From: Eledone cirrhosa
Lineage: Eukaryota
Assembly: GCA_964016885.1 (NCBI GenBank)
Contig: OZ024747.1
Location: 5,208,001 to 5,272,000, forward strand
Direction of reading: 5' to 3'
Length of the DNA: 64,000 nt
The translations under genes and the position numbers were made by a program. This document shows, in pieces, positions 7,831 to 34,795 of the stretch (position 1 is its first letter; each line of letters opens with the position of its first letter). The notes under the pieces are model-generated. The model did not search any database, was not told where the DNA came from, and was given only the letters and a program-made list of their open reading frames with translations.

Positions 7831-8500
7831 ACAGGAGAGGTGACTTTACACACACTTGGCAGAGTTCGATAGCCACATTGAATGGTTTTGACTTGGCACT
7901 ATTTATCTGAACACAAATACTAGGGCATTTGTATAGAGACATCTGGGCAACAAGAAGCTGACCATTAATCCCATATTTTTGCAGAACTTTCCACAGAAGG
8001 TCCTGTGGTACAGGATCATATGTTCTTTAAAGGTTTATGAAACAAGCATACACCTCTTGGCAATACTCCCACAATTTCTCAAAGACCTGCCACTATAAAT
8101 ATTTGGTTGGCTGTGCTGCATCCGGGGCGAAAACTACACAGTTCTTCAGCTAGCTTGAACTCAACAATATTCCTACAATTCTTTGCTATAGCATAGATTT
8201 TACTGGAGAGACTTAACAAGGAGATCCCTCTATAATTGCAACAATCTCTTCTCCCCCATTTTGAAAATCGGAATTATCACTCCTGATTGCCATTGCTTAG
8301 GGAATACTTTCTCTATTTAAGGCTTTTAACATTTTGGACTGAATTTCATCCTCCTCAGCGGCCTTACAACATTTGAGCTCTTTAATTGCTCTTGTGACCT
8401 CAGCCTTCAAGGGGTTAGCTATTGCTCCCAGATGGACCTTGTGTATATGAGAAGATGCTATTTGTGACCAGGTTTAGGAAATCAGCAAAGTATTCTCTCC
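7830..8500 (-). mobile_element. RTE-clade LINE reverse transcriptase fragment, decayed
   Basis: Minus strand reads FEKLWEYCQEVYACFINL*RTYDPVPQDLLWKVL and SKPFNVAIELCQVCVKSPLL (RT motifs), with stops and frameshifts. Confidence 0.75.
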
Positions 8501-8999
8501 ATTTCACAAAGATGTACCTCTCTTTATCCTGTGTCATTGCCTTTGAGAGGTGCAATTGTGCAAGGTCAGTAATATAAGATATAAACTTTTCTGAGTAGGA
8601 AGTGATAATAGAGCAGACGGAGTAGGCATTGTACTAGCTGAGAGTGGATAAATAGGGTAATAGTAGTAGTTAGTGTGAATGACATAATTATCATGCTCGG
8701 AATAGTCATGACGATAATTACACAACAAAAGCAGGACTAAAAGAACAAAAGGCCAGTTTTTATGGGGACCTCTTGCAGACAACTTCAGTTACATATGACT
8801 GATGTTTCATGGCCCTGGCTGGTGACTCCAATGACCATGAAGGGCAACGCCAGGATGGCAACTGGTAGTCGCGGCATACACAGTAGCTCTAGTTATTATA
8901 CAAGGAATGGAGACTGAGCGAAATTCTGAGAATTCTGTGATAGGTATCAATTTACCATTTGCAACAACCCAAGCCAGATGTGCAGATGGTTGTAAATGC

Positions 9000-9900
9000 T
9001 AAGACTTTTCCTCGAGAAGAATATATCACACAACACAGTTATTATTGACATTCAAATAAACACAAGACGGAACAAGAAGTGCAGGAATATATGGAGGAAT
9101 TTTCTGTTAATGTAAGTTCAGAAATGTTCTAGGGAACACATGACAAGTTAGAGGAGTTAGTGGAAGTTTGTATGAGACAACTTACTGTAGGATACTGACA
9201 AGACTTGTAAAGTACCTGCCAGACGAGGGCAATCTGGTGGTGGAACAACAGTTCGGGTAGAACAGTTAAAAAGAGACAAGCTTGGAAAGACTTTAAAATG
9301 GGCGCTGCAAATATTAGTAATAGATAGCTAAAAGAGAAGCCTGACAACAGGTATACTTAGCACACAAAGAAACTGAAAGTGGGAGGTTTACCAATGTCTT
9401 GGGATGGGAGGTGCTCCAAATCACTAAACAGTATGTGTGAAAATCAGGGTGTTGGGGAAAAGTGTGATTGAAATGACACTGGTACACTTAGCATCACTGA
9501 CATTCAAAAGAAAGAGGCCAGGAATGCTATTATGAGAGGTTGATAGATGTGGAGAAGATATGGGAAAAAAGGATCTACCCTCAGACTCAACAGAAGGACC
9601 AGCTGTCGAGTCAAAGGAGCAATGAAGGAGATGAGAAATGGTAAAGCTGCTGGTCCGTTAGAGATAGTCTCTGAGATACTGAAATCTGCTGTGGAAATGG
9701 GAGTCGAACTACTCACCTTTGTAATACATGATATGGTCATACCCAATGACTGGGGTAGAAGTATACTTTTAACTGTTACCAGGGGAAAGGTGATATGCTA
9801 GAAAGGAGCAACTATAGGTTTATAAACTGAAAGTGACAGAACTAAGAGAGAAAGAGTCGAATTTAATGAATACAATTTGGTTTTGTGCCAGGAAGGAGCA
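9000..9900 (+). mobile_element. RTE-clade LINE ORF fragment, decayed
   Basis: MKEMRNGKAAGPLEIVSEILK...IPNDWGRSIL, the region N-terminal to the non-LTR RT domain. Confidence 0.75.
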
Positions 9901-10240
9901 CACAGATACTCTCTTCTGTAGAAACCATACCAAGAATGGTTGAGAGGATTCTTCAGTTGTGTTAACAGCACAACTCCCTCTCTAGTATTTGGGGTGTACA
10001 TGATAAATGCATCCAGTTCACACTGTGGTTGGTGATAGGAAAGGCATCCAGCTGTAGAAAGCTTAAAACATAATTACACACTTCATTCACATGAACATGT
10101 ATATATGGATTATAGATACATATTTAAATATACAGCTATCGTTATATGAACAACACATATATTGACAAGTGTTGTGCATGGATACAGAATTTTATAGTAA
10201 ATAGTATCCCTTGATAATGAATATATGAGGAAGACGAATA

Positions 10241-15114: not shown

Positions 15115-17105
15115 TCCCGATCACTTTTCTCACTGTCATTGATAATGTTTTTACTTAAGCACAATGACACAAATTTGGTGGGTGGTGGAGTATAGTCACT
15201 AAATCTATCTCAGCATATTACTGGTATTTATTTTATTGACTTTAAACAGATGAAAAGCAAAGTCTACCTTTCTATAATTTGATGTTAGTAATAATTTTCT
15301 TTAGATTCCTTTGTCTAAGAAAATTTTTTTCTATTTTTCAGCCATTCATTTTACCAGAAAGGTGAAGAAAAATTTGAACTGAATCTACATCCATTTTTTG
15401 ACATTAAATCTACCTCACTGTAGAAATATAACAACAAATGTCATATGTGGATGTTGCTCTTTTCTAGTATATTTAAACTGAACAGCTACAGAGAGAAAGT
15501 GTATTGTTGATTCAAATGTTGTGTAGTGTTGTTCATCTCTTTCTAACAATGATTATTTATCTTCACATATATCTGTAAAGACAGAAGAGAAGAAATATCT
15601 TTTGTGTTGATATTTGTGATTCTCTATTTACAACCTCTACTGGAAATGACAATTCTTCTCTGTTAAATATTGTGTTAATGATAAAGCTGGTATCAATGCC
15701 AAAATGGCTGAACAGGAAGCGTTACTAAATAAAGAAATTTGCTTTGTTTGTGAAGTTTGTGGAGAAACATTCTCTACAAAATATACATTTATGAATCATG
15801 AAGTGATACATCAAAAAGAGAGAGGTATTTTTAATGAATCAATGTCTTCATATTTACCTCAGTATACCTGTGATATCTGTGGGAAATCTTTCCCAACTAA
15901 GAAAAGGTTTACTCAACATAGAAGAACGCATTTCAGACCCAAGATATTTCAGTGTGATGTTTGTGGTAATTCATTTGCTCAGAAAAATGATCGAGATAGA
16001 CACAAGCGAATACATTCTGGAGAGAAACCTTATCCTTGTGATGTATGTGGAAAATTCTTTTCCCGAAATAGTCATTTAAAAATCCACAAACTAACCCACT
16101 CGGGAGTAAAACCTCATCGTTGTGAGACATGTGGTAAATCATTCTCACAAAATTGTGATCTGGAAAGACATATACGTGTACACACAGGAGAGCGACCTTT
16201 TAAATGTGATACTTGTGAAAAAAGATTCTCTCAAATTAATGAACTTGGAAGACATAAACGAATACACACAGGAGAAAAGCCATATGCCTGTGAGTTTTGT
16301 CAGAAAACGTTTACTTTAAATTGTATTCTAGTAAGACATAGACGAATACATACTGGAGAAAAACCCTATAATTGCGATTTTTGTCAAAAATCATTTTCCC
16401 AAAATAGCATTCTTGTAAAACATTTGCGAATGCACCATGGAGGGAAACCTTATCAATGCAAGATTTGTGGTAACACATTTACAACAAAACGTATTTTAGT
16501 TGATCACACAAGAACACATACTGCAGACGGTCCTTATCCCTGTCAACTTTGTGGTGAAATATTTTCTCAATATACAGATATAGTGAAACACTTAGAGATA
16601 CACACTGGATGAAGAACTGTTGGAATGTTTACAAGAATATTTTTCTTAAAATAAAGAACTTTTCTCAGCATATAAAAATACCTTCAATCAAATAGAATTG
16701 AGAATTTTAAGTTTGTGTAATGACATACTGAAGAGAAATTCATTGATTTGAAGAGATCAACTTTTCTGCCTGAGTTGGGTATAATTTTTTCTACCTATTG
16801 CTTGGTGAGATGGTTTAGAATGAGATATCCATTGTTGTACTGGTAGATGGTAAATTTGAAGTTCTAAAGATGCAGAAATCTGAGAAGAATTCGAAATCAA
16901 TTTGGTGTATAGATTTTTATACATAAAATGGAATATTTGAGATACAAGAGATGTTATGGATAAAACGATTTTGAAAGCAACAAGTAACACCTTTTGAATT
17001 GGAATAACATAACTAATTCTTGGATGGCAAATACTGTTGATGTTATGGTAGAAGAAACCAACAGAGAATGTAACAGTGTATCAGGATTAAGGATTCAACA
17101 TTTAT
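15115..17105 (+). repeat. Left arm of a ~2-kb inverted duplication
   Basis: Reverse complement of ~32765-34795; UTR portions were identical wherever I compared them. Confidence 0.95.
15704..16612 (+). CDS. C2H2 zinc-finger protein, 302 aa, 10 fingers (copy 1)
   Basis: Intact ORF with ten CxxC-x12-HxxxH units and TGEKPY-type linkers; no effector domain recognised. Confidence 0.93.
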   Translation: MAEQEALLNKEICFVCEVCGETFSTKYTFMNHEVIHQKERGIFNESMSSYLPQYTCDICGKSFPTKKRFTQHRRTHFRPKIFQCDVCGNSFAQKNDRDRHKRIHSGEKPYPCDVCGKFFSRNSHLKIHKLTHSGVKPHRCETCGKSFSQNCDLERHIRVHTGERPFKCDTCEKRFSQINELGRHKRIHTGEKPYACEFCQKTFTLNCILVRHRRIHTGEKPYNCDFCQKSFSQNSILVKHLRMHHGGKPYQCKICGNTFTTKRILVDHTRTHTADGPYPCQLCGEIFSQYTDIVKHLEIHTG

Positions 17106-20230: not shown

Positions 20231-22007
20231 ACTTAGCAGCCAGTACTTCCTTGTAAAAGCAGCAATGTAAGAAGGTACAATTCTGAGATTTTTTTTCCTT
20301 GATATGATTCTGATTTTCTATAACAAGATCCCCATCTTCTGATTGTTAATTGTAGTATATGAACTTTGTTATGCCTGGGGTGCAACTTACAAAAACTATA
20401 GCATGTAATGTGAGAAACCTGAATTTTGTTTGGGGATGTGATCTAGTTTTTTTGGGTGTGTGTGTGGGTGAGTCATAAAGGTGATTCCGTAAGAAGATGT
20501 GGTGGAATGCTTGGTAAAATCCTAGGATGGTGGTTGATTCCGGGATCAAGGTTCACATACGTGTAATCCGTAAAGAGATTGGTCGGAAGAGGGGAGATGT
20601 GGGGTGCGCGCACAACAGGAAGTGGTCAAGGCAGGAGGAGTGTTGTGTGTCTGTGTGTGCGGGGAGGTGGTCAGAAGGCATAGCAGCAGTGGTGTAGAAT
20701 GTTGTGTGTCTGTGTGTGCGGACCTACTGGTTCAATTCCTGGATTGGGCTGTGTGTTGGGTTCTTGAGCAAGGCATTTTTCACTTTGCTCCAGTATACTC
20801 AGCTGAAAATGAGTACCAGCAGTAACTGGGGGTTTAACTCTGTGATGGACTGTTGTCATATCCAGGGGAATGAGGAGTCTTTTACTCTGTCACCTAACAC
20901 CATGGAAACTGGCTAAGCATCTTGATGAGCTTCTGAGCTTGAGACGGGGTCCTTTTTTAGGCCTGATGCCTATAATCCTATTTGTACAACTTAGTTTATA
21001 GATTTCCATACCATCCAGAAAATGAAGAAATCAAAATATCTTAATGCAGCCATGTATGAAATAACTATCTTTGTTTCTATCTGCAATGGTTAACATAGAG
21101 AAAAATGTGAAACTTGACAGGAAATCCCTTTAATCATTCTTATTGACATTTGGTGCTGTCTTTGATAAGAACCAATTTGAGTCAGTGAATGGAATCCTCT
21201 TTATATGCTAATACTAGAGTTAGGTACAAGACGATCACATAGCCTTGTAGCTTGAGAGGACATCAACTGGAAGAAGTTTTTCAACTTCCACTAATACTGT
21301 CACTTAATAAGTATTATATTTTGTCTTTAATTTAATTTTAAAGGCTCCAGTTATTGATTGCTATATTTTCCAGTGCAAAACATGCTTTAAGCTGAAGATG
21401 TGGGACTTGTTTATAAAGGCCATAATTCTACTTTCTTTTGAATAGAGGGTCGTTTCTTTTCCTATGAGATTTTGATGTTATTTATCTTGAGAACAATACC
21501 TTAACATCAGTATGAGTGGTCAGTTATAGCCAATTTGAACAGAGAGGCAAGACATTTCTGGACGGATACGGACGGTTTGAATGCTAAAGGGTTAAGACAG
21601 TATGTCACAATCTGTTTCCTTCAACAAACATTTGTTTATTTAACTTTGGCATATTCTATCAAGGGATTCATTTACTATGAACATTATATTGAAGTTAAGG
21701 GCTGAAGCACTTCCTTGAATGGGGTTTCTTCTCTGAAAACCTTCTGCCGTCCTGAGAATTTCTTACCATTGTATATTTCACTTTTCCGTGTCCTATCAAT
21801 GGATTCTTTTACTACAAACGTTATACTTAACAATGTTTAGCAGGAAGAAATGTATGATTGTTAGATTCAGTATACATATGATGTCTGTGATTCAGTATGT
21901 GTTGGTGTGAGGACTTGGTTGTTGTCAGGTTAAAGTGAAGCTAATTTGGGTAAAACAGGTTACATCCAAGAACTCATGATTGGCAGTCCTTGGCTAAATC
22001 TTGTTCA

Positions 22008-23985
22008 TAACCAAGGCCATAATTCTGGTGTTACTGGGGTTTCCATGTTTGGGCTCCACTCCTGAAATTCTTTGAAGACACAGTTGTGCGTGTCTCTGCC
22101 GGGTTTAACGCATGCTTGTGCTAGTTGGTCCATGTCATATTCGCATAGTTCGTTTGTTTTTTTTCTTTTCGGTGTGGATGGTTGTGGCAGTGCGTGTTTC
22201 TAATCCTATCTCCAGCTGCCGCCTAACTTCGACAAGTTTCTTTTTTTTGTTGGATGATATCTGATCGGTTTTGCTGGGTCTTGGTTTTTGTGATAGGTAG
22301 GTTTTGTTGTACTCTTTGCTAACTAATTTGTCGATATATGGCTTCCAGATTGTTAAACCACATCAAGGGGTTTAGTTCTATTTTACCCCAGTCTTTCAGT
22401 TGGGGCATTTCTCTATGAGTTCCGTAAAAGAATAGTCTGTTTTTCAGAGCATCCTTTTCATGCAGAACCACGTTCCACGGTTCTACGTTGCTGGTTGATA
22501 GCAAGGGCATTCTTTTAAGTACTCCTTGTTGATGCTTTATGTTTATGTAAGTCGGCGTGCCCTCCAAAATGCATTTGTCCTCTTCTGTGTTTTGGTTTGT
22601 GAACTACATTTCATCTGTGTAGATGAGGCTCTTGTCGATGCAGCTACCGAAAGTGAAATTGTCTGAAGCCTGGCATTACATTCTACTGCAGTTTGAGTCC
22701 ATTTCTTATGGATCGCAAAATGTAGGATTTTCCGCTATTGGAAGGTCCCATGATGTGCAACCCGTTTACTTTTGGGTTTATCTTATGACACACTTCGAAA
22801 GTTTGTCTGTTGAATGATTCGTGATCGAATGAGTGATGGTCTATCCATTCATTATAAATGTCTAGGGAAGTCTGTATATCGTGATAGCTGCTCGTCATCG
22901 ATAATTAATATCATATGGGGCGGATCTTCCGTTGTGTACAATACTTTGTTTATTAAAGTTCTATTGGCTACAACCATGTCACCTGACTGTAGTGTTTCTA
23001 TGCTCTCAGCATTTTTCCGTTCTTGTGTATGATCGAAATTGCAGCTGCTTATTTCGTTTAAGCATATGTCTTCCCATTCTTTGTCTCTTGCCCTATATCG
23101 TATTTCTTTGAATCCTTTATCTCTTTGCAAACCCATAGTACCATAGTTTGGTCCCATAGCGGTATCTAAGCAACCGTCCCATGTAATGTCTTTTCCCTGC
23201 CCCAAAATTTAGAATGGTACCGTGTACTGTTAAATTGTTGTATATGTCTACATTAGTTAGTGGTATGTTGTTTTTCCACGTGTGTGAATGAATCTCCTTG
23301 TCTAATTTTCTTTTTGGAACTCCTTTCTCTCCAGTTGTGGAAGTCGTTTATTTCAGTTGTGCATGAATGTCAATTTTCGTTGATGTTGCAATTTGCGTTC
23401 TCGTTAACGTATTCCGCTGTCGGCCGTATTAGTTGAAATCCTCTGTTAGGTATTTGTGTAATGCTTTTCAAGTTACCGTAACCTATAAAGTTTCCTTTGT
23501 CTACGAATACTTTGAAGTAAGGTTGAGGATTGGGAACGAATACTTGTTCGTTGTTTTTAGTTGTCCATTCTCCGCAAATGGTGTCGCTTGTGTTTACTCC
23601 TATTCCTTACTATTCTGTAAGATGTTGCGTTATATAGAGAAGTTTCGAATTGTGATGGTAATATCCAACTAGTTAAGAAGTACGGAACTATGTAGTCCTC
23701 CGCTTGTACTTCTCTGTAAGCGTAGTGTCCTACGTTGTGGTATCTGTTTTCTGATTCTATATATCTGGAGAATTTCACTTTAGCTGAGTTCATGTCGCAA
23801 CTTTTCACCATGTTTCTGAACGTTCTTTAGGAATGTGAACACTCGTTGATGATTTCCCGTAGGTGGAGGTAGTCCTCCACTTGTTGAAGTACTCTGCCAT
23901 CTGTTAGAGCAGAGTTTCCCAAACTTTTTCAAGCTGGCACCCCCTTGGCTTCCAGATAGATTCCTAGCGCCCCCTCTCCTATTAT
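22008..23985 (-). pseudogene. Endogenous parvovirus-like element 1, NS1 relic with SF3 helicase
   Basis: Walker A PKVNGLHIMGPSNSGKS (core 22725-22748), Walker B LIYTDEM, B' KCILEGTPTYINIKHQ, motif C PLLSTSN, arginine finger ALKNRL. Two in-frame stops and several frameshifts. About 1 kb of upstream coding-like sequence is probably also viral. Confidence 0.88.
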
Positions 23986-24228
23986 ACACATGTGAGCTTT
24001 TTTTTTCAAAGTGAAAACAACAATATTAAACACAAAATATGTATTTCAAAAATAATAATTAATTCAATAAACCATTTTATTTGGTCTTCGCAATTACCCT
24101 CAATATACACATGCAAGCATTTATTTTTTTTTGTTTCAAATTGAAAACAACAATATTAAACACAAAATATGTATTAAAAAATACATATTAATTTAATAAA
24201 CCATTTTATTTAGTTTTCACAATTACTT
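23984..24228. repeat. ~120-bp tandem duplication, probably the hAT 3' subterminal region
   Basis: TATACACATG...GAAAACAACAATATTAAACACAAAATATGTATT...AATAAACCATTTTATTT is present twice in tandem. Confidence 0.8.
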
Positions 24229-25608
24229 CTAATGGGATGGGTGTACTTGGTGTAGGGATATTACTTTCACCACATCAGGCTGGAACTCACTAAGAAGAAG
24301 TCATAGATCCCCACGTTTGGTAATTTTAAGTCTGTTCCTTTGCTTGGAATGAAGCAAGGCAACTGCACTGAAGCCCCGTTCTACCAAATATGATGTTGGA
24401 AAGGCAATAAAATATATCTTCACCTTGTTCCATAATACTGGATAGAAGTCAGAGATTTTTTTTTGTAACCAAAAATCTTGATATGATTTCTTGAACTTTG
24501 GCCTTAGTTCAATGTCGTTTTGGATTGAAACTAATTCTTCCTCTGCCGCTCCTGTGTCCTCACTGCTGACATCTAAGAATGGATTGATTACCCAGTCTGG
24601 TAATTTAAGCAATAAAAGATCCTGAAATCTTTCAGACATGTCTCTTTGCAACTCTTCCAGGTGAGCACAATACACTTGAAGGTCATCATCTGATATGCTC
24701 TTCTCTTTCTCCAATTCAGAGAGGCTTGGAAACTGGTAGATTTCATGACGGGCTTAGTTTCGTTTGAATAACTTACACTTAGACAGGAAGGTGGAGATAG
24801 TAAATTTGACTTTGATAAGGTTGACATCATTTCCTTGCAACTGCAAATTAATTTCATTGAACTTTGTGAATATATCTGACAAATAAGCAATGTCATCCTT
24901 CATGTTTTTAAGATCATCACAGAGCCCAGAGTTAATCTTGGAAAAATTCTACAACTGTATCAAACAGTGAAGTTTTCCTTTGACAGCCATCTAACTTCTG
25001 TGTGTAGCAATAAACGTTGACTCTTCATCATTATCAATCCAAAACTGTCGAAACAGTCTGGAATTGAGAGAATGTGCCTTGATTTTATTTACTGCTGTGA
25101 TAACTATTCATTGATTTGTGAAGTCGACCACTTAGGTTTTTTGCTACCAGATGCTGCCTGTGGATTACACAGTGCACTGTAGCACACCAGGTACAGTTTT
25201 TTTCAAGAAACTGATGAAGCCACGATGACGACCTATCATCAATGGTGCTCCATCTGTTGCACAAGCATGTTAGAAAGCGGGATGTTTTTCTCTTGGAAAA
25301 AATTCTCAACAACATTAAATACTGATTCTCCTTTAGTGTCTGTGTTAAGTTGTCTTGCAAATAACAGCTGTTGAACCAACTTTTCATCTTTGATAAAACG
25401 AACATAAGCAAGAAGCAAAGATTCACATCCTGGTAGAGTGGACTCATCTAACTGAAAGCTAAATTCTGTTGCGGCAAGAATGTTGCACAATGTTTTCAGC
25501 CATTTCATCTACTCTTCTTTGAACCGAGTTATCACTGAGAGGGATAGCTTTTATAATTTGGTCAGGTGACATGTACAACTGTGTGTAGAACCTCTCTTAT
25601 TGCAGGTT
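24229..25608 (-). mobile_element. Buster/Charlie-type hAT transposase fragment (ZBED5/SCAND3-like), frameshifted and 5'-truncated
   Basis: FSFQLDESTL, HCVIHRQHL, HTEVRWLSKG-like segment, FPTSYLVERGFS, KQRNRL and terminal QVHPSH*. No TIRs seen. Confidence 0.92.
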
Positions 25609-25919
25609 TAGGAGGATGACAATATGAGGACCTGCAGTCACTGGTTTTTAAAATAAAGGCGCTGGAATAGTGAGGCATCAAAAGTGCGCCATCGCTGGTG
25701 GAAGAGGTGCCCCTCTAATTTTTTTCTCACTTACCATCGCCAGTGATGAAAATAGTTATATTGCGGGTGTGCGATGTTACATGTAAATGTAACATCTGTA
25801 TCTGCTTGTCTATAAAAGAATATGTCGTACTCGGCCGAGTGTGTGAGTTTATGCACGAAACGTCTATGGGGTTTGTATTGCCTCCCCATGATGTACAGGA
25901 GGCTGTTGGTTGACTTTAG

Positions 25920-26690
25920 TCATAATTCTTCTTCTAACGGCATTGCTAATGGGCTCCAGTTTGGTGATTCTTCAACATGTATTGTCTATAAATTTGCTAA
26001 TGTATGGCGCCCATATGGTTAGCCACATTAACGGGTTTAGTTCGACTTTTCCCCACTGCTTCAGTTTTTGTCCATGGGTCTTGACGTTTCATAATAGAAT
26101 AATCTATTTTTGATTGCCTCTTTTTCATGTAGCACAACGTTCCATGGTTCTACGTTGGAAGTAGACAGACTTGGTGTTCTTTTCGATATTCGTTGATTTT
26201 GGTGCTTGATGTTTATGTATGTTGGCGTTCCCTCTAGGATGCATTTAGCCTCTTCTATATTGTTGTTTGTGAACCACATCTCATCGGTGTAGATCATTGT
26301 TTTGTCTATGCAACTGCCGAACGTAAAGTTGTCTGATGCCTGGCATCTCATTCGTCCGCAGTTCATAAGACCGTTTCTGATAGACCTTAGAATGTAGCTT
26401 TTACCGCTGTTCGATGGACCCGTTATGTGCAGTCCGTTTATTTTTGGAGTTTATCTTATGACAAACCTCAAAGGTATGTTGCGCGAATAGATTTTTATCG
26501 AAGTGTTGGTGTGTTAACCATTCTTCGAAAATGTCGAGAGATGTCTGTATATCATAATAGGTGGATGTCATTCCAGTGAAAAATTCTTTTTTGTCTCTTA
26601 TTTGTTCCCATATAGGCGTTACTTTAGTTTCTATGTTCGTTTCGACTGCTGCTGCTTGTATTATGTTTACCAAGTTTTCGGAAACAATGT
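25920..26690 (-). pseudogene. Endogenous parvovirus-like element 2, NS1 C-terminal half (SF3 helicase)
   Basis: KINGLHITGPSNSGKS (core 26397-26420), MIYTDEMW, EAKCILEGTPTYINIKHQ, TPSLSTSN, AIKNRLF. Frameshifts in A-runs near 26445 and 26065. Confidence 0.9.
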
Positions 26691-26724
26691 GTTAGAGGAT
26701 CCGATGTCATCTTGCGATGCGGAG

Positions 26725-27225
26725 TCAACTTCCATTTTTTTTATCACAGACATTATTTTTATACTTAAGAGAATGATTATTAGCATTATCGATGTTACCT
26801 GCACCGTCTTCTGGTCTGAAGTATGAATCAAATCCGAGATAGTGTTTTGTAGCAATTGCGCCCGCTGCCAATAAATACTGTTGGTGCTGCGTTGATGAAT
26901 TTTCTATCCGCGTCCCAGGTTCTCTTTCTAGGATTTGTGTAGTCGGTGTCATGAACTTTCGCAGCTTGGTCGAGGGTGTTTTTGGGTACTTGGAATCGTC
27001 TTACTTTTATATCTGTTCCTGGCCCTAGGAAGTTGTACCTTGAAAGGTGATGTTCTTCCGACTCCTTTCATGGGTGCGCGTACTCGGCATTTGTGGTGCG
27101 TGACAAATAGCGCTTGTCTATTTATAGTATATTTGTACTTGAAATATTTTCATTCTATGCAGTCGCTGGTTCGAAGGTTTATCGTAAATTAGTATAAGGC
27201 ACTTCTTTTCCCCTGTGGCAGCCAT
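26725..27225 (-). pseudogene. Viral-type phospholipase A2 (PLA2) domain ORF relic
   Basis: Manual translation gives YNFLGPGT (Ca-binding loop; YNFLGPG at 27017-27037), PKNTLDQAAKVHDTDY (catalytic HDxxY at 26939-26953) and ADRKFI, then AAGAIATKHYLG after a frameshift. One stop and two frameshifts relative to the ATG at 27225. Confidence 0.88.
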
Positions 27226-27276
27226 GGCGGTGAGGTATCACGTGATCTACTTACGATCACCACCCCTTCCCTTATA
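27222..27276 (-). promoter_or_regulatory. Candidate viral promoter: TATAAG, CACGTG E-box and strong Kozak CCGCCATGG
   Basis: TATA at 27271-27276, palindrome ATCACGTGAT at 27237-27246, ATG at 27225. Confidence 0.45.
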
Positions 27277-27689
27277 ATTAAGGTGTTAGTATTACAGAAA
27301 TATAATTATAACGAGCTAAGTATGTACATATGTGATATATGTGTGTGGAGAGTTAGAATAAAGTGTGAATTGTGGTGTATTTAGATGTTACAGAATTTGA
27401 CAGTGAATGTATGAATGTGGAGATGTGACTTGGGAAATAATATTACCATGATATCTGGCAGATTAACTCACTTGGCTGTGACAGCATTCACTACAATGGT
27501 CACTGTCAGTGTCTGGGAGGGAACAGAGAGGTCACAAAGTGAGGTTTCTTAAAATGGTAGCTTCGTTAAAATACTCATTGTTATTTTTGGCAATGATATA
27601 GCTGCGTTTCATACCCACGGATTTACCCCTGCAATAATTTTGCTGTAAATGCATTATTATTTTTTTTTTGTGTCTGCCAAATTTCTGTC

Positions 27690-30330
27690 AAAGTGTTTCC
27701 CACAAATATTGCACTGTAGGCACTCTTATATGTCAATATATAGATGTCTTTGGGGAATAAATACTTTATACCACAAATCTTACATTAATGTGGTCGTACT
27801 CGTCTGAGTTTTATCTACTAAGCCATTTTTTTTTTTTTTTTTTTTTTTTGTCAAATACGTCTTCATTAAACCGTAGTTGTCTATAAACTACAAAAGAAGA
27901 ATTCACAGTTAATGATTTTTTTCATATTTCACAGTGTGTATTCTTTTGTGTACTGTTAGTACTGAAATCTCAAAGATTTAGCACATATTTTATAATATGT
28001 ACCGTTAGTACTGAAATCTCAAAAGATTTAGCGCATATTTCACAGTGTGTATTCTTTTGTGTATGTACAGTACGGAAATCTCAAAAGATTTAGCGCATAT
28101 TTCACAGTGTGTATTCTTTTGTGTATGTACAGTACGGAAATCTCAAAAGATTTAGCGCATATTTCACAGTGTGTATTCTTTTGTGTATGTACAGTAACGA
28201 AATCTCAAAAGATTTAGCTCATATTTCACAGTGTGTATTCTTTTGTGTTGTACAGTACTGAAATCTCAAAAGATTTAGCACATATTTCACAGTGTGTATT
28301 CTTTTGTGTTCAGATAGTACTGAAATCTCAAAGATTTAGCACATATTTCATGTGTACTGTTAGTACTAAAATCTTAAAAGATTTAGCGCATATTTCACAG
28401 TGTGTATTCTTTTGTGTATGTACAGTACGGAAATCTCAAAAGATTTACCGCATATTTCACAGTGTGTGTTCTTTTGTGTACGTACAGTACGGAAATCTCA
28501 AAAGATTTACCGCATATTTCACAGTGTGTGTTCTTTTGTGTTCAGATAGTGCTGAAATCTCAGAAGATTTAGCACATATTTCACAGTGTGTGTTCTTTTG
28601 TGTACGTACAGTACTGAAATCTCAAAAGATTTACCACATATTTCACAGTGTGTGTTCTTTTGTGTATGTACAGTACTGAAATCTCAAAAGATTTAGCACA
28701 TATATTTCACAGTGTGTGTTCTTTTGTGTTCAGATAGTGCTGAAATCTCAAAAGATTTAGCACATATTTCACAGTGTGTGTTCTTTTGTGTTCAGATAGA
28801 ACTGAAATCTCAAAGATTTAGCACATATTTCATGTGTACTGTTAGTACTGAAATCTTAAAAGATTTAGTGCATATTTCACAGTGTGTATTCTTTTGTGTA
28901 TGTACAAAAATCTGAAATCTCAAAGATTTACCACATATTTCACAGTGATAAGATTTTTCTGTAATGTGAATTCTCCTAACGTTTTGAATGACTATCTCTG
29001 ACAAAATATTTTCCACAAATTTCACAGTGGTAGGGATTTTCTTGAATGTAAACACATTTAAATATTTAGAGAAGGCTTCCCCCACACTTTTCACAATGAT
29101 GAGGCTTTCCTCCAATGTTTTCTAATCTATGTGTTTTTCTAGAATTCCACTGTTTCGAAATGATTCTTTACAATCCCTAATGCAACAACAATGTGTTTTT
29201 CTTCATAATGTTTTACCACATAGTGTTGTTGTTTTTTTCAGAGCCTGGAAAAGTAATGGGCCATGTCTTGCCCTGCCTTCTCTGACTAATAAAAATAACA
29301 AAATCTTTACTTGTGTATTTATAGGTTTACTTTAAAACATAACTTAATGCTGAGTAAGCCTACAAAATGTCATGCCAATGTGGTTATTCTTTACATATAA
29401 TAATGTTTTCTTGAAAAGCTGTTGATCTGGCAAATATGGTGTTGATTGTTTATTTCTTCTGGCTCTCTATGCTCTCAGATCAAATCTAGCTGAAGGCTAC
29501 TTTTCCTTCCATCATTTTGGAAGGAAATTATGGACATAGCAGCCGATGCTGGCACAGCCTTCTCTCCTTCCAGTTGTCGTACTCTGGAAGTTCCACTGAA
29601 TCAAGGGTGGGAAGTAAAGAAGCTATAGCCCGGTGCTGGCATAACCCTCTCTCCTTCCAGCTGACATTCCACTGAATCAAGGGTGGAAGGATTGAGGTGT
29701 TTAGTTGTTCTGTTTGAAAATACTTTATCACTTATCTGATTAACACAAGTCATATTTCTTATATGATTTGTGGCCCCCAAAAAGATAAGAATACTGCAAA
29801 ATTATTTCCACAAATATCACAGTAATAAGGTTTTTCACCAACTGGTGGCCTAATGTGAATTGTTACAGTAGAATCTATAACTCATGGCTTCCCACAAATT
29901 TGACAAAAATATTGTTTTTAGTGCAAATACTTATATACAGAAAGGCAGTCCCCCTCCTGTAAATTGTTCTTCTGTGGTGTATCATACAACCTTTTCAAGT
30001 CAGAATGGGATCTTCTACAGCAGTTAGTGTTTATTACTTTGTACACCCATTCATGATTACCAAGGTTACACACCTTTTTTCTTTTTTAAGTATTTCTACA
30101 CACTGTAACTCGTTAGTATATTACAAGTTGTAAAATATTCAAAGAATGATTTCCTCACCTGCCTCAAGTGGAATATTCTCAGACAATGAGTTCCCTCTTC
30201 ATTTTCACAATGACAAATGTTTGTTTCTTCTATTCTTTTCTCCATTGTGTATACGTTTGTGGATTACAAGGTTAGAATTCTCAGAAATATTTACCACAGA
30301 TTTCACGTTCATTATTCATGCTACCCATTG
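27690..30330 (-). pseudogene. Decayed multi-finger C2H2 ZNF pseudogene
   Basis: Scattered minus-strand fingers: EICGKYF/NSNLVIHKRIHNGEK (~30240-30305), GEKPYYCDICG (~29805-29840), IHITEKSYHCEICGKS (~28927-28972) and QCNICGKH (~27700). Many stops. Confidence 0.75.
27922..28947 (-). repeat. 62-bp tandem array (roughly 17 units, including shorter variants) derived from one zinc finger
   Basis: AAAAGATTTAG recurs at 28021, 28083 and 28145 (period 62). The minus strand of a unit reads CEICAKSFEISVLYIHKRIH. Confidence 0.92.
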
Positions 30331-32764: not shown

Positions 32765-34795
32765 AAATTGTTAATCCTTAATTTTTGTCTCCTTGATACA
32801 CTGTTACATTCTCTGTTGGTTTCTTCTACCATAACATCAACAGTATTTGCCATCCAAGAATTAGTTGTTATTCCAAATTCAAAAGCTTTTGCTTCTTGCT
32901 TTCAAAATCTTGTTTTATCCATAACAACATCTCTTGTATCTCAAATATTCCATTTTATGTATAAAAATCTATACACCAAATTGATTTGGAATTATTCTCA
33001 TATTTTTGCATGTTTTTGCATCTTTAGAACTTCAAATTTACCATCTACCAGTACAACAATGGATATCTCATTCTAAACCATCTCACCAAGCAATAGGTAG
33101 AAAAAATTATACCCAACTCAGGCAGAAAAGTTGATCTCTTCAAATCAATGAATTTCTCTTCAGTATGTCATTACACAAACTTAAAATTCTCAATTCTATT
33201 TGATTGAAGGTATTTTTATATGCTGAGAAAAGTTCTTTATTTTAAGAAAAATATTCTTGTAAACATTCCAACAGTTCTTCATCCAGTGTGTATCTCTAAG
33301 TGTTTCACTATATCTGTATATTGAGAAAATATTTCACCACAAAGTTGACAGGGATAAGGACCATCTGCAGTATGTGTTCTTGTGTGATCAGCTAAAATAC
33401 GTTTTGTTGTAAATGTGTTACCACAAATCTTGCATTGATAAGGTTTTCCTCCATTGTGCATTCGCAAATGTTTTACAAGAATGCTATTTTGGGAAAATGA
33501 TTTTTTACAAAAATCGCAATTATAGGGTTTTTCTCCAGTATGTATTCGTCTATGTCTTACTAGAATACAATTTAAAGTAAACGTTTTCTGACAAAACTCA
33601 CAGGCATATGGTTTTTCTCCTGTGTGTATTCGTTTATGTCTTCCAAGTTCATTAATTTGAGAGAATCTTTTTTCACAAGTATCACATTTAAAAGGTCGCT
33701 CTCCTGTGTGTACACGTATATGTCTTTCCAGATCACAATTTTGTGAGAATGATTTACCACATGTCTCACAACGATGAGGTTTTACTCCCGAGTGGGTTAG
33801 TTTGTGGATTTTTAAATGACTATTTCGGGAAAAGAATTTTCCACATACATCACAAGGATAAGGTTTCTCTCCAGAATGTACTCGCTTGTGTCTATCTCGA
33901 TCACTTTTTTGAGCAAATGAATTACCACAAACATCACACTGAAAAATCTTGGCTCTGAAATGTGTTCGTATGTGCCGAGTTAACTTCTTATTAGTTGGGA
34001 AAGATTTCCCACAGATATCACAGGTATACTGAGGTAAATATGAAGACATTGATTCATTATAAATACCTCTCTCTTTTTGGTGTATCACTTCATGATTCAT
34101 AAATGTATATTTTGTAGAGAATGTTTCTCCACAAACTTCACAAACAAAGGAAATTTCTTTATTTAGTAATACACTCTGTTCAGCCATTTTGGCATTGATA
34201 CCAGCTTTATCATTAACACAATATTTAACAGAGAAGAATTGTCATTTCCAGTAGAGGTTGTAAATAGAGAATCACAAATATCAACACAAAAGATATTTCT
34301 TCTCTTCTGTCTTTACAGATATATGTGAAGATAAATAATCATTGTTAGAAAGAGATGAACAACACTACACAACATTTGAATCAACAATACACTTTCTCTC
34401 TGTAGCTGTTCAGTTTAAATATACTAGAAAAGAGCAACATCCACATATGACATTTGTTGTTATATTTCTACAGTGAGGTAGATTTAATGTCAAAAAATGG
34501 ATGTAGATTCAGTTCAAATTTTTCTTCACCTTTCTGGTAAAATGAATGGCTGAAAAATAGAAAAAAATTTTCTTAGACAAAGGAATCTAAAGAAAATTAT
34601 TACTAACATCATATTATAGAAAGGTAGACTTTGCTTTTCATCTGTTTAAAGTCAATAAAATAAGTACCAGTAATATGCTGAGGTAGATTTAGTGACTATA
34701 CTCTACCACCCACCAAATTTGTGTCATTGTGCTTAAGTAAAAACAAATCATCATCATCATTATCATTATTAATGACAGTGAAAAGAATGATCGGT
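32765..34795 (-). repeat. Right arm of the ~2-kb inverted duplication
   Basis: Reverse complement of 15115-17105. Confidence 0.95.
33279..34187 (-). CDS. C2H2 zinc-finger protein, 302 aa, 10 fingers (copy 2)
   Basis: Intact ORF; 15 amino-acid differences from copy 1 by my count. Confidence 0.93.
   Translation of the reverse strand: MAEQSVLLNKEISFVCEVCGETFSTKYTFMNHEVIHQKERGIYNESMSSYLPQYTCDICGKSFPTNKKLTRHIRTHFRAKIFQCDVCGNSFAQKSDRDRHKRVHSGEKPYPCDVCGKFFSRNSHLKIHKLTHSGVKPHRCETCGKSFSQNCDLERHIRVHTGERPFKCDTCEKRFSQINELGRHKRIHTGEKPYACEFCQKTFTLNCILVRHRRIHTGEKPYNCDFCKKSFSQNSILVKHLRMHNGGKPYQCKICGNTFTTKRILADHTRTHTADGPYPCQLCGEIFSQYTDIVKHLEIHTG

Follow-up and report, generated by a model that had tools for sequence, protein, structure and literature searches.

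Parvoviruses are described as either NS-first (monosense) or ambisense. Section 5 of a 2024 review (PMC11357303) places NS first in all parvoviruses, the usual layout having NS on the left and VP on the right. In the SwaBA megaparvovirus 1 group, according to an excerpt of another paper (PMC13426907), a PLA2-bearing ORF lies 5' of NS1 and a jelly-roll VP without PLA2 follows it. For the Buster transposons, the consensus target duplication is nnnTAnnn (excerpt of PMC3517528) and the TIR-only ends of the Buster element AnBT do not transpose (excerpt of PMC12637253). Other hAT elements, of the Ds type, occasionally contain captured DNA, for which repair of excision breaks has been proposed as the origin (excerpt of PMC3260210).

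Here we describe a locus in a stretch of 64,000 nt from Eledone cirrhosa (contig OZ024747.1, positions 5,208,001 to 5,272,000; hereafter the window), in which two NS1 helicase relics are nested and not neighbours: a parvoviral fossil (virus 1) contains a Buster hAT transposon, which in turn contains NS1 and the terminus of a second strain (virus 2, the passenger; Table 1). We consider it rather probable that a single capsid-first fossil was split by Buster and that the 5' part of Buster was replaced by NS1 and terminal DNA of the second strain, likely patched in during the repair of a transposase-made end break. No function is evident at the locus, which is dead sequence, and none is claimed.

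Anatomy of the nested locus

The original prediction was of two NS1 integrations about 2 kb apart, flanking a hAT fragment, in 22008..26690. Two SF3 helicase relics are indeed present in the same orientation on the minus strand (PF01057 E-value 2e-14 at 26064-26450; tblastn links both to the same NS1 proteins in the database), the quoted NS1 peptides are found in the sequence, and a co-oriented hAT relic sits between the helicases. However, these are separated by 3.1 kb, the feature continues past 26690 to ~27300 (capsid start and promoter region), and what had been taken for NS1 throughout the first element is NS1 only from 22901 to ~22050, the segment 22903-23901 being capsid gene. The hAT relic, which had been called TIR-less and lacking both ends, has an intact 3' TIR at 23910, a 5' TIR at 26689-26676 and a flanking 8-bp duplication; the second NS1 does not flank it but lies inside this duplication-bounded insertion, which splits the capsid gene of virus 1.

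Table 1. Components of the composite locus, in coordinates of the window
Feature	Position	Strand	Evidence
Virus 1 left-end/promoter region	27091..27300, outer limit approximate	-	TATAAATA at 27126-27119; AAGAGGTGCC-like motif ending at 27207
Virus 1 capsid gene part 1, VP1 unique region with PLA2 motif, frameshifted	26698..27090	-	PF08398 E 1.6e-8 at 26885-27061; tblastn to family capsids
Target-site duplication, right copy	26690..26697	+	TGTTAGAG, nnnTAnnn type
Buster 5' TIR, 13/14 nt, no subterminal sequence left	26676..26689	-	matches 5' ends of L030, L032; L027, L033 with one change
Virus 2 NS1 middle part (helicase)	25978..26675	-	PF01057; ~residues 250-482 of P0002; 92% to L014 over 180 bp
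Virus 2 3' region and right terminus	25607..25977	-	blockwise alignment to L014 and L007
Buster 3' 1.7 kb, 3' TIR intact at 23910-23924, transposase broken	23910..25606	-	91-95% to other copies
Target-site duplication, left copy	23902..23909	+	TGTTAGAG
Virus 1 capsid gene body	22903..23901	-	tblastn E 6e-63 to P0027; DNA matches to L006, L007, L016; family fold is the parvoviral jelly roll
Virus 1 NS1 second half (helicase and tail)	22030..22901, outer limit approximate	-	~residues 279-565 of P0001/P0002

The Buster insertion measures 2.78 kb with both inverted repeats and the 8-bp target duplication. On the plus strand of the window TGTTAGAG occurs only at 23902 and 26690, the 14-mer of the 5' TIR occurs 93 times in 3.0 Gb, and the joint chance of a duplication and a TIR falling at exactly both junctions is ~1e-11 per site. 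Matching nnnTAnnn duplications were found in 3 of the 4 two-ended Buster copies elsewhere (L027, L032 and L033, not L030). Copy L027 extends 710 bp further to its own 5' TIR; at our locus passenger NS1 DNA replaces ~710 bp of the Buster 5' part. The transposase resembles FAM200/ZBED5/SCAND3 by language-model features (protein atlas; 0.90-0.91 for the frames of L027), and the hAT dimerisation domain PF05699 appears in the window only under the cut-off (E-value 0.006), with no match in the L027 frames. An alternative in which two adjacent but independent NS1 integrations at a hotspot are separated by an end-less hAT fragment of no relation to them would agree with the presence of two strains under purifying selection, with the abundance of related fossils and with the existence of some true arrays elsewhere in the genome. 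It is nevertheless contradicted by 26676-26697, both TIRs and the duplication enclosing the second NS1, and by capsid halves that abut on their homologues, so that we regard it as highly improbable. A hotspot in the sense of such landings is not seen here; true co-oriented arrays occur elsewhere (L058/L076).

Aligned separately, the two halves of the virus 1 capsid gene abut on L007 (1463/1452), L056 (688/700), L060 (868/839) and L059 (839/813). Because both halves are only 66-68% identical to the L007 capsid, while identity of the passenger to pieces of L014/L007 amounts to 92-96%, the first half belongs with virus 1 and not with the adjoining NS1. The capsid body contains several frameshifts and stops and is truncated near residue 504 of P0027; an internal deletion of ~1.2 kb joins it to the NS1 of virus 1, which contains 2 stops and 3 frameshifts. 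A spliced-RNA origin of this deletion was considered and set aside, as no donor site was seen at the junction by eye. The left end of virus 1 aligns weakly to the left ends of L060 and L058 (scores of 84 and 73, where shuffled sequences reached at most 64), and the AAGAGGTGCC-like motif is also found 5' of the capsid gene in L056, L057, L058, L059, L060, L067, L069 and L075.

The composite of virus 1, Buster and passenger is single-copy in the assembly, and the 25606/25607 junction was seen in none of the other Buster copies (each of the 3 further matches ends at this point). Short-read contigs of the same species, probably from the assembly's own study and not independent, cover 21540-23969, 24942-25821 and 25869-27817 with zero differences; the junctions are therefore not assembly errors. 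RAD reads of two other individuals contain 22111-22328 (virus 1 NS1) and, among the matches listed, miss the junctions; no intermediate allele (virus 1 without Buster, or with a whole Buster) was seen. No RNA data set was listed as containing the sequence, which speaks neither for nor against expression.

Two viral strains and a proposed order of events

The NS1 relics are identical at 429 of 584 nt (74% DNA identity). In agreement with the prediction of similar proteins with many synonymous codon differences, the substitutions are distributed over codon positions 1/2/3 as 37/23/88 (88 of 148 at third positions), and 69 of 148 same-residue codons differ. The dN/dS calculation that had been proposed gave 0.087 (bootstrap upper bound 0.17; pN/pS 0.22, 0.15-0.30): the two genes diverged as separate virus strains under purifying selection. 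Local duplication of one NS1 after integration, against which the original prediction had argued, would account for the common strand and the near-identical motifs, and the AU test on the protein tree does not reject the two relics as one clade at 0.05 (p 0.08; the divergent NS1 of L068, which gave no alignment, was left out of the tree, and L058div, L064 and L065 were dropped for the clade test). Against it stand the low dN/dS, the third-position excess, the lack of any stop common to both relics and the limitation of their similarity to 584 bp of coding sequence; moreover, L014, a different locus, is a much closer match to the NS1 of virus 2 (92% identity) and groups with it at 96% bootstrap. 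We give this alternative next to no credence. Repeated germ-line infection, which had also been proposed, is borne out by 26 capsid matches and more than a dozen NS1 places in the genome.

The stops in the two relics are as had been reported, two in frame in virus 1 NS1 (22678, 22606) and none in virus 2 NS1 over 190 codons, but the conclusion that their decay differs does not hold: 2/190 versus 0/190 gives a Fisher p of 0.5, frameshifts are present in virus 1 NS1 too (near 22694, 22357 and 22190) as in virus 2 NS1 (two, near 26445 and 26068), and damage to conserved columns amounts to 6/86 and 6/98, respectively. From the latter counts, over 2.4 replacement sites per codon, the decay of the NS1 relics is roughly ~2.9% and ~2.6%; that of Buster is 2.9-4.8%.

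Relative to L014, the 3' region of virus 2 has two internal deletions (~290 nt and ~186 nt). The segment 25901-25794 matches L007 at 103/107 nt, and 25611-25757 matches an isolated terminus in L066. The passenger differs from L014 by 13 substitutions in 59 codons, 9 of them at third positions, and therefore represents a sister strain rather than a neutral copy; copying from L014 is disfavoured by this bias and by the further extension of the passenger into the terminus. A deletion junction and frameshift shared by the passenger and L007 were considered and withdrawn, the capsid homology of L007 being sure only up to the start of the patch; more simply, the patch common to both belongs to the strain's own 3' sequence. 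No donor of the passenger was found in the assembly.

In the repair reading that we favour, virus 1 would have integrated first, its 1.2-kb deletion across the capsid-NS1 boundary being either already carried or acquired later. A complete Buster would then have inserted into the capsid gene, creating the duplication, and ~710 bp of its 5' part would subsequently have been lost and the gap filled from the DNA of the second strain. The fill would be joined through a short microhomology 14 nt into the TIR (L014 is without that part) and end at the virus's own terminus, with free viral DNA of a co-circulating strain as the likely donor. All steps would fall inside one short period (~3% decay each).

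The equal decay of the three parts fits just as well a single integration of a ready-made composite built on free viral DNA, i.e. Buster would have inserted into the replicating genome of virus 1 in a co-infected germ cell, followed by recombination with strain 2. Such an assembly would also agree with co-oriented arrays joining two viral lineages at L058/L076, L064/L065, L074 and L068, as expected from mixed concatemers, with the different hAT transposase that adjoins the capsid promoter in L056, and with the occurrence of Buster at ~97% identity, next to non-matching flanks, in sequencing runs from four other organisms (these runs cover Buster and scattered viral pieces, not the flanks of the locus). 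However, searches for a further virus-Buster chimera in this family found none, decay that is equal within count error does not show simultaneity, and a viral genome enlarged by a complete Buster would be longer than the 4-6 kb given as usual for parvoviruses in section 3 of PMC13426907, which makes packaging doubtful. We consider it unlikely, though not far-fetched; if true, a horizontally moving transposon would have used the virus as a landing pad and possibly as a vehicle.

Alternatively, Buster could have acquired the second NS1 elsewhere and brought it as cargo (Pack-type transduction). The passenger does lie between both TIRs, the duplication is perfect, and short-ended deletion copies with duplications are known in this Buster family (L032, L033). 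Nonetheless, the 5' end comprises only 14 nt, compared to at least 65 nt in L032, and neither a donor nor a sister copy was found; the composite also differs from a mobile Pack-type hAT in being single-copy and in missing the 5' subterminal region. Transduction thus appears decidedly improbable. Given that the TIR-only ends of AnBT are inactive in the excerpt cited above, transposition of the composite in one piece is unlikely, and as such it probably never jumped.

The capsid-first gene order

The virus lineage, known from integrated copies and database proteins, has capsid and then NS1 on one strand between terminal hairpins. In the copies elsewhere in the genome, NS1 starts within 160 nt in 7 of the 11 capsid-end motif matches. 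Hairpins, where found, lie outside the capsid-NS1 pair, either 5' of the capsid gene (L060, -27 kcal/mol) or 3' of NS1 (L058, -58; L059, -35), and in four hairpin-less capsid-NS1 spacers the best 120-nt fold is -7 to -12 kcal/mol; only weak terminal folds were seen at the left end of virus 1 itself (-12) and in L014 (-15). The promoter motif recurs inverted 3' of NS1 (L072 and the window), and the capsid and NS1 genes likely each have their own promoter. A second viral lineage also has capsid then NS1, with NS1 only ~23% alike between the two lineages. The usual NS-left/VP-right layout, which is a described generality and not the SF3-based classification criterion, is thus not found here. The capsid-first order would be new for parvoviruses, and no paper on it was found in the literature searched.

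As far as the gene order alone is concerned, the same picture might arise from an ordinary NS-then-capsid virus whose genome is circular or forms head-to-tail concatemers, and NS-then-capsid fragments are present in L056, L065 (second lineage), L077 and L063. In these four loci, however, the fragments are either truncated pieces joined together or separated by 3 kb, and the end-to-start junctions run from the capsid stop to the NS1 start over a spacer of less than ~160 nt. A concatemer would place the termini in this spacer, hence hairpin-less spacers count against it, as do the hairpins before the capsid gene and after NS1 and the inverted promoter motif after NS1; we find this explanation improbable. 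A bipartite genome was dropped after direct capsid-stop to NS1-start junctions were seen in seven loci, which indicate one molecule, and the capsid-only L007 is better read as a deletion form. The 200-bp flanking repeats of L003 were rejected as viral ITRs, being direct and not inverted.

On balance, we lean towards an unnamed cephalopod parvovirus group of two lineages, with a linear hairpin-capsid-NS1-hairpin genome on one strand that lies outside both known layouts and possibly arose when the NS cassette of an ambisense ancestor was inverted, and towards a horizontally spreading Buster that recombined here with two of its strains, perhaps on free viral DNA.

Parvoviral identity and comparison with known systems

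The SF3 helicase domain PF01057 was found above the cut-off in virus 2 NS1, P0001, P0002 and P0016, and virus 1 NS1 was recognized through its tblastn matches with these proteins. For one family member, the sequences that match best are those of AAV Rep and NS1 structures. The HUH endonuclease domain is absent from both NS1 relics in the window (deleted); full-length relatives exhibit an HFH motif by eye, without a Pfam nuclease match, and a neighbour NS1 clusters in the atlas with Rep_N / HBoV_NS1-like_N. The PLA2 domain PF08398 was also found in L007, L056, L058 and L060, and strong terminal hairpins in L058, L059 and L060. The capsid model (family frame, L060) has a mean pLDDT of 58, with core strands mostly at 70-90; all listed PDB matches reported by Foldseek are parvoviral capsids (best E-value 1e-10), as are, by name, 49 of the 50 listed BFVD matches, at 9-16% identity to solved or predicted parvoviral capsids. 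The family capsid is thus predicted to be a jelly roll of the parvoviral fold. Among 55 NS1 profile matches there was no named virus, the only named ones being cuttlefish genome proteins, and searches of IMG/VR and JGI metagenome contigs, which need shared short words, found no free viral relatives. P0027 is encoded on a database contig of 4,470 bp and P0167 on one of 5,245 bp.

The capsid-first monosense layout, found across several sublineages and also in a second deep lineage, would represent a third single-molecule architecture, and it poses a testable question, namely how NS1 is produced early from a gene behind the capsid gene. No cephalopod parvovirus paper was found in the literature searched; cephalopods gain a rich, recent fossil record of parvoviral infection. 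The locus offers a clear-cut example of viral DNA inside a cut-and-paste transposon inside another viral fossil, and bears on parvoviral germ-line entry and on whether small DNA viruses encounter horizontally moving transposons.

Among described systems, monosense Parvoviridae (NS then VP: Dependoparvovirus, Iteradensovirus, Hamavirinae) and their endogenous elements resemble our family in the SF3 NS1, PLA2-bearing VP1, jelly-roll capsid, both genes on one strand, terminal hairpins and decayed germ-line copies, but the order is reversed here. Ambisense Densovirinae (Aquambidensovirus) are alike in the invertebrate host, PLA2, the capsid start beside the terminus with its own promoter, and inverted terminal motifs, whereas NS1 is here on the capsid strand and starts mid-genome; inversion of the NS cassette in an ambisense ancestor would give the capsid-first layout. 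The Acheta domesticus segmented densovirus (AdSDV), bipartite according to citing passages in PMC11357303 and PMC13426907, is comparable in that capsid-only L007 and NS1-only fossils with common ends first suggested segments; in contrast to it, capsid and NS1 are joined directly here. The SwaBA megaparvovirus 1 group, as excerpted, shares the PLA2 ORF 5' of NS1, but here the whole capsid gene precedes NS1. On the transposon side, Buster hATs share the short imperfect TIRs, the 8-bp nnnTAnnn duplication and a ZBED5/FAM200-type transposase, and Ds elements with captured DNA (excerpt of PMC3260210) share foreign DNA between TIRs. Unlike in these captures, the captured DNA at our locus is viral and of the same family as the target, one end is a bare TIR, and the element is single-copy.

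Nested organization of the locus

The original prediction described two NS1 integrations flanking a hAT fragment that lacks both ends. Six-frame translation of the window (G000:C7:5208001-5272000, in a genome of 3.0 Gb) confirmed both SF3 helicase relics with the peptides reported for them, on the minus strand, but the arrangement turned out to be different. At least 50 matches to the Buster hAT element were found genome-wide (the best at 91-95% identity). Its complete copies carry two unlike terminal inverted repeats (TIRs; 3' end CAGAGTTTCCCAAAC, 5' end CATTGTTTCCCAAAG), with matching 8-bp nnnTAnnn duplications in three of the four two-ended copies; such a duplication is the Buster consensus (PMC3517528; general hAT features are described in PMC3942097). 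The supposedly missing ends are present in the window, and TIRs with a matching duplication at both junctions indicate that 23910-26689 is a single insertion, with the second NS1 inside it rather than beside it. On its own, the 5' TIR 14-mer is found at 93 sites in the genome, vs 67 for a control; the duplication together with 10 TIR letters at one site has a chance probability of ~1e-11. Buster sequence ends at 25606, 710 bp before the 5' end known from the copy L027.

Features of the composite locus (window coordinates)
Feature	Position	Strand	Remarks
Target-site duplication, left copy TGTTAGAG	23902-23909	+	adjoins 3' TIR
Buster 3' TIR	starts 23910		immediately after TGTTAGAG
Target-site duplication, right copy TGTTAGAG	26690-26697	+	sole + strand recurrence of the 8-mer
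Buster 5' TIR	directly inward of the 26690-26697 duplication		13/14 letters match
Capsid start, parvoviral PLA2 motif	26885-27061		profile match
Capsid body	23901-22903		matches capsid frames of other loci
Passenger (virus 2)	25607-26675		NS1 residues ~250-482, followed by the 3' region and right terminus

A 130-bp internal duplication by the Buster 3' end (23998-24097, 24128-24226) is a family feature, found in other copies too. The family is ~97% identical in sequencing runs of four other organisms, X7, X8, X11 and X20 (34 substitutions in 1194 bp and 23 in 791 bp; depth ~400-500 in X8), in which the host flanks of the window Buster are not shared at 80%. Buster is a young element that probably spread horizontally.

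The insertion divides one capsid gene, that of virus 1. Aligned apart, the end of one capsid half abuts the beginning of the other on four homologues; the first half is absent from L006. Each half shares 66-68% identity with another parvoviral copy, L007, vs 96% over 107 nt for the 3' region of the passenger, which assigns the capsid start adjoining element 2 to virus 1. A model of a family capsid frame (mean pLDDT 58) matched parvoviral capsids only among the listed PDB hits, and in 49 of the 50 listed BFVD hits. From homology maps we estimate that virus 1 lacks ~1.2 kb spanning the capsid-NS1 boundary. Several truncated NS1 copies start at a near-identical place (window 22901, L059:5546, L071:4583, L074:5341; ~residues 273-293 of database protein P0002). 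Deletions may recur at this point, the copies may represent a class of defective genomes, or homology may simply cease to be detectable here.

Two viral strains and the origin of the composite

Compared with 26 database relatives, NS1 homology is confined to 22901-22056 and ~26680-25978, and the first half of NS1 is missing from both relics; the Parvo_NS1 profile matches the frame 26064-26450 of element 2. The named relatives of the viral proteins come only from Acanthosepion pharaonis and Octopus vulgaris. Comparison of the two relics over 188 in-frame codons (two left out owing to stops) yielded pS 0.69, pN 0.149 and dN/dS 0.087 (bootstrap upper bound 0.17); because dS is close to saturation, pN/pS of 0.22 (0.15-0.30) is the safer figure. 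These low ratios indicate that the NS1 genes diverged as viruses, as had been proposed. The claimed difference in decay, however, is not significant (two stops vs none, p 0.5; damaged conserved columns 6/86 vs 6/98). Element 2 shares 92% identity with locus L014, with which it forms a group (96% ultrafast bootstrap); on a short protein alignment the AU test did not reject a clade of elements 1 and 2 (p 0.08). The passenger differs from L014 by 13 substitutions in 59 codons, and the bias toward third positions (nine of them) identifies it as a sister strain. Comparison of the 3' region and terminus with L014 reveals deletions of ~290 and ~186 nt, and the final 150 nt correspond to an isolated terminus in L066. 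That terminus (L066:3466-3623) and the copy L007:530-2440, which holds only the capsid gene and both end regions, are shaped as internally deleted defective genomes would be.

Two strains are nested at this locus. No differences appear in the short-read contigs that cover the three junction regions, and 22111-22328 is present in RAD reads of two other individuals (four of the 23 listed runs, plus four more, were compared). A genome search found the passenger-Buster junction in no other Buster copy. Virus 1 would have arrived first, Buster second, creating the duplication, and the passenger third. Since TIR-only ends of the Buster AnBT are non-functional in cells (PMC12637253), a jump of the composite with its 14-nt end is improbable. 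Capture of foreign DNA by hAT elements has been proposed to originate in excision-break repair (PMC3260210), and a free linear donor would fit, since a natural viral terminus marks the end of the passenger. Decay is ~2.9% and ~2.6% in the two NS1 relics and 2.9-4.8% in Buster, which places the three events close in time. The same similarity speaks for a serious rival, namely that the composite was built on free viral DNA and integrated once; we consider it less likely than stepwise arrival in the order virus 1, Buster, passenger. The locus is a nested, dead fossil; the original finding was real, but it was misread as adjacent integrations at a hotspot.

Surroundings and other parvoviral arrays

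The microsatellite load of the window, its C2H2 zinc-finger genes and the named relatives of the viral proteins point to a cephalopod as the likely source. A 1733-bp inverted duplication (15146-16878 and 33013-34745, 98% identical), each arm of which holds a 320-codon C2H2 zinc-finger frame, encloses the viral locus in its 16-kb spacer. A 62-bp tandem unit (~14-16 copies, 27923-28947) is located 600 bp past the viral left end, and 21462-21595 is a short, extremely high-copy, MITE-like repeat with opposite-strand joints. In another parvoviral copy, L056, a different hAT transposase relic (L056:1288-2568) directly adjoins the promoter region of the capsid gene. Co-oriented arrays of two parvoviral lineages are found on contigs C12 (L058 and L076, G000:C12:9074000-9092999; at least seven segments over 19 kb), C841 (L063-L065) and C25 (L074/L057). 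It is these arrays rather than the window that resemble true clusters; they may stem from mixed concatemers or from a retention like that of piRNA clusters.

Order of the viral genes

Searched with a capsid query, the genome yielded 26 matches, and 32 stretches of 8-10 kb were mapped. The conserved capsid C-terminus GxF(V/I)NK-stop, likewise present in database protein P0027, was counted in the first 20 stretches and found 11 times. In six of the 11 (L057, L058, L060, L061, L063, L067) the distance from the capsid stop to the first NS1 motif is 100-159 nt, and in L056 NS1 homology begins 100 nt past the stop. L059 and L062 also have NS1 after the capsid, with either a deletion or an insert of 1 kb; L073 has the motif without NS1, and chance probably accounts for the L074 match. 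No hairpin was found in the four capsid-NS1 spacers folded; hairpins lie ahead of the capsid gene (L060) and behind NS1 (L058, L059), and the promoter motif reappears inverted downstream of NS1. A deeply divergent second lineage, with NS1 22-24% identical to the first, likewise joins the capsid stop to the NS1 start (L058/L076, L074); it possesses PLA2 and is represented by L058:27-1646 and 7891-9998, L068, L074 and L076. Against this order stand NS-then-capsid fragments in L056, L063, L065 and L077, each of which, however, consists of truncated pieces or pieces 3 kb apart. We regard capsid-first as very probably the native order, and this layout is a more important result than the window locus.

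Parvovirus-related sequences have been reported from molluscs, with octopus and cephalopods unnamed in the main text of that paper (PMC5013282). No report of octopus or cephalopod parvoviral elements, and none of a capsid-first order, was found in the literature searched, which covered few subscription journals and not the 2025 taxonomy proposals. The status of this order as unreported is provisional, and that it is both native and unreported seems to us somewhat favoured. Every parvovirus is described as placing NS left and VP right, on the same or opposite strand (PMC11357303), and the genomes listed in PMC13426907 are monosense, ambisense or bipartite; in the megaparvovirus group of the latter source a PLA2 ORF lies upstream of NS1, but VP is still downstream.
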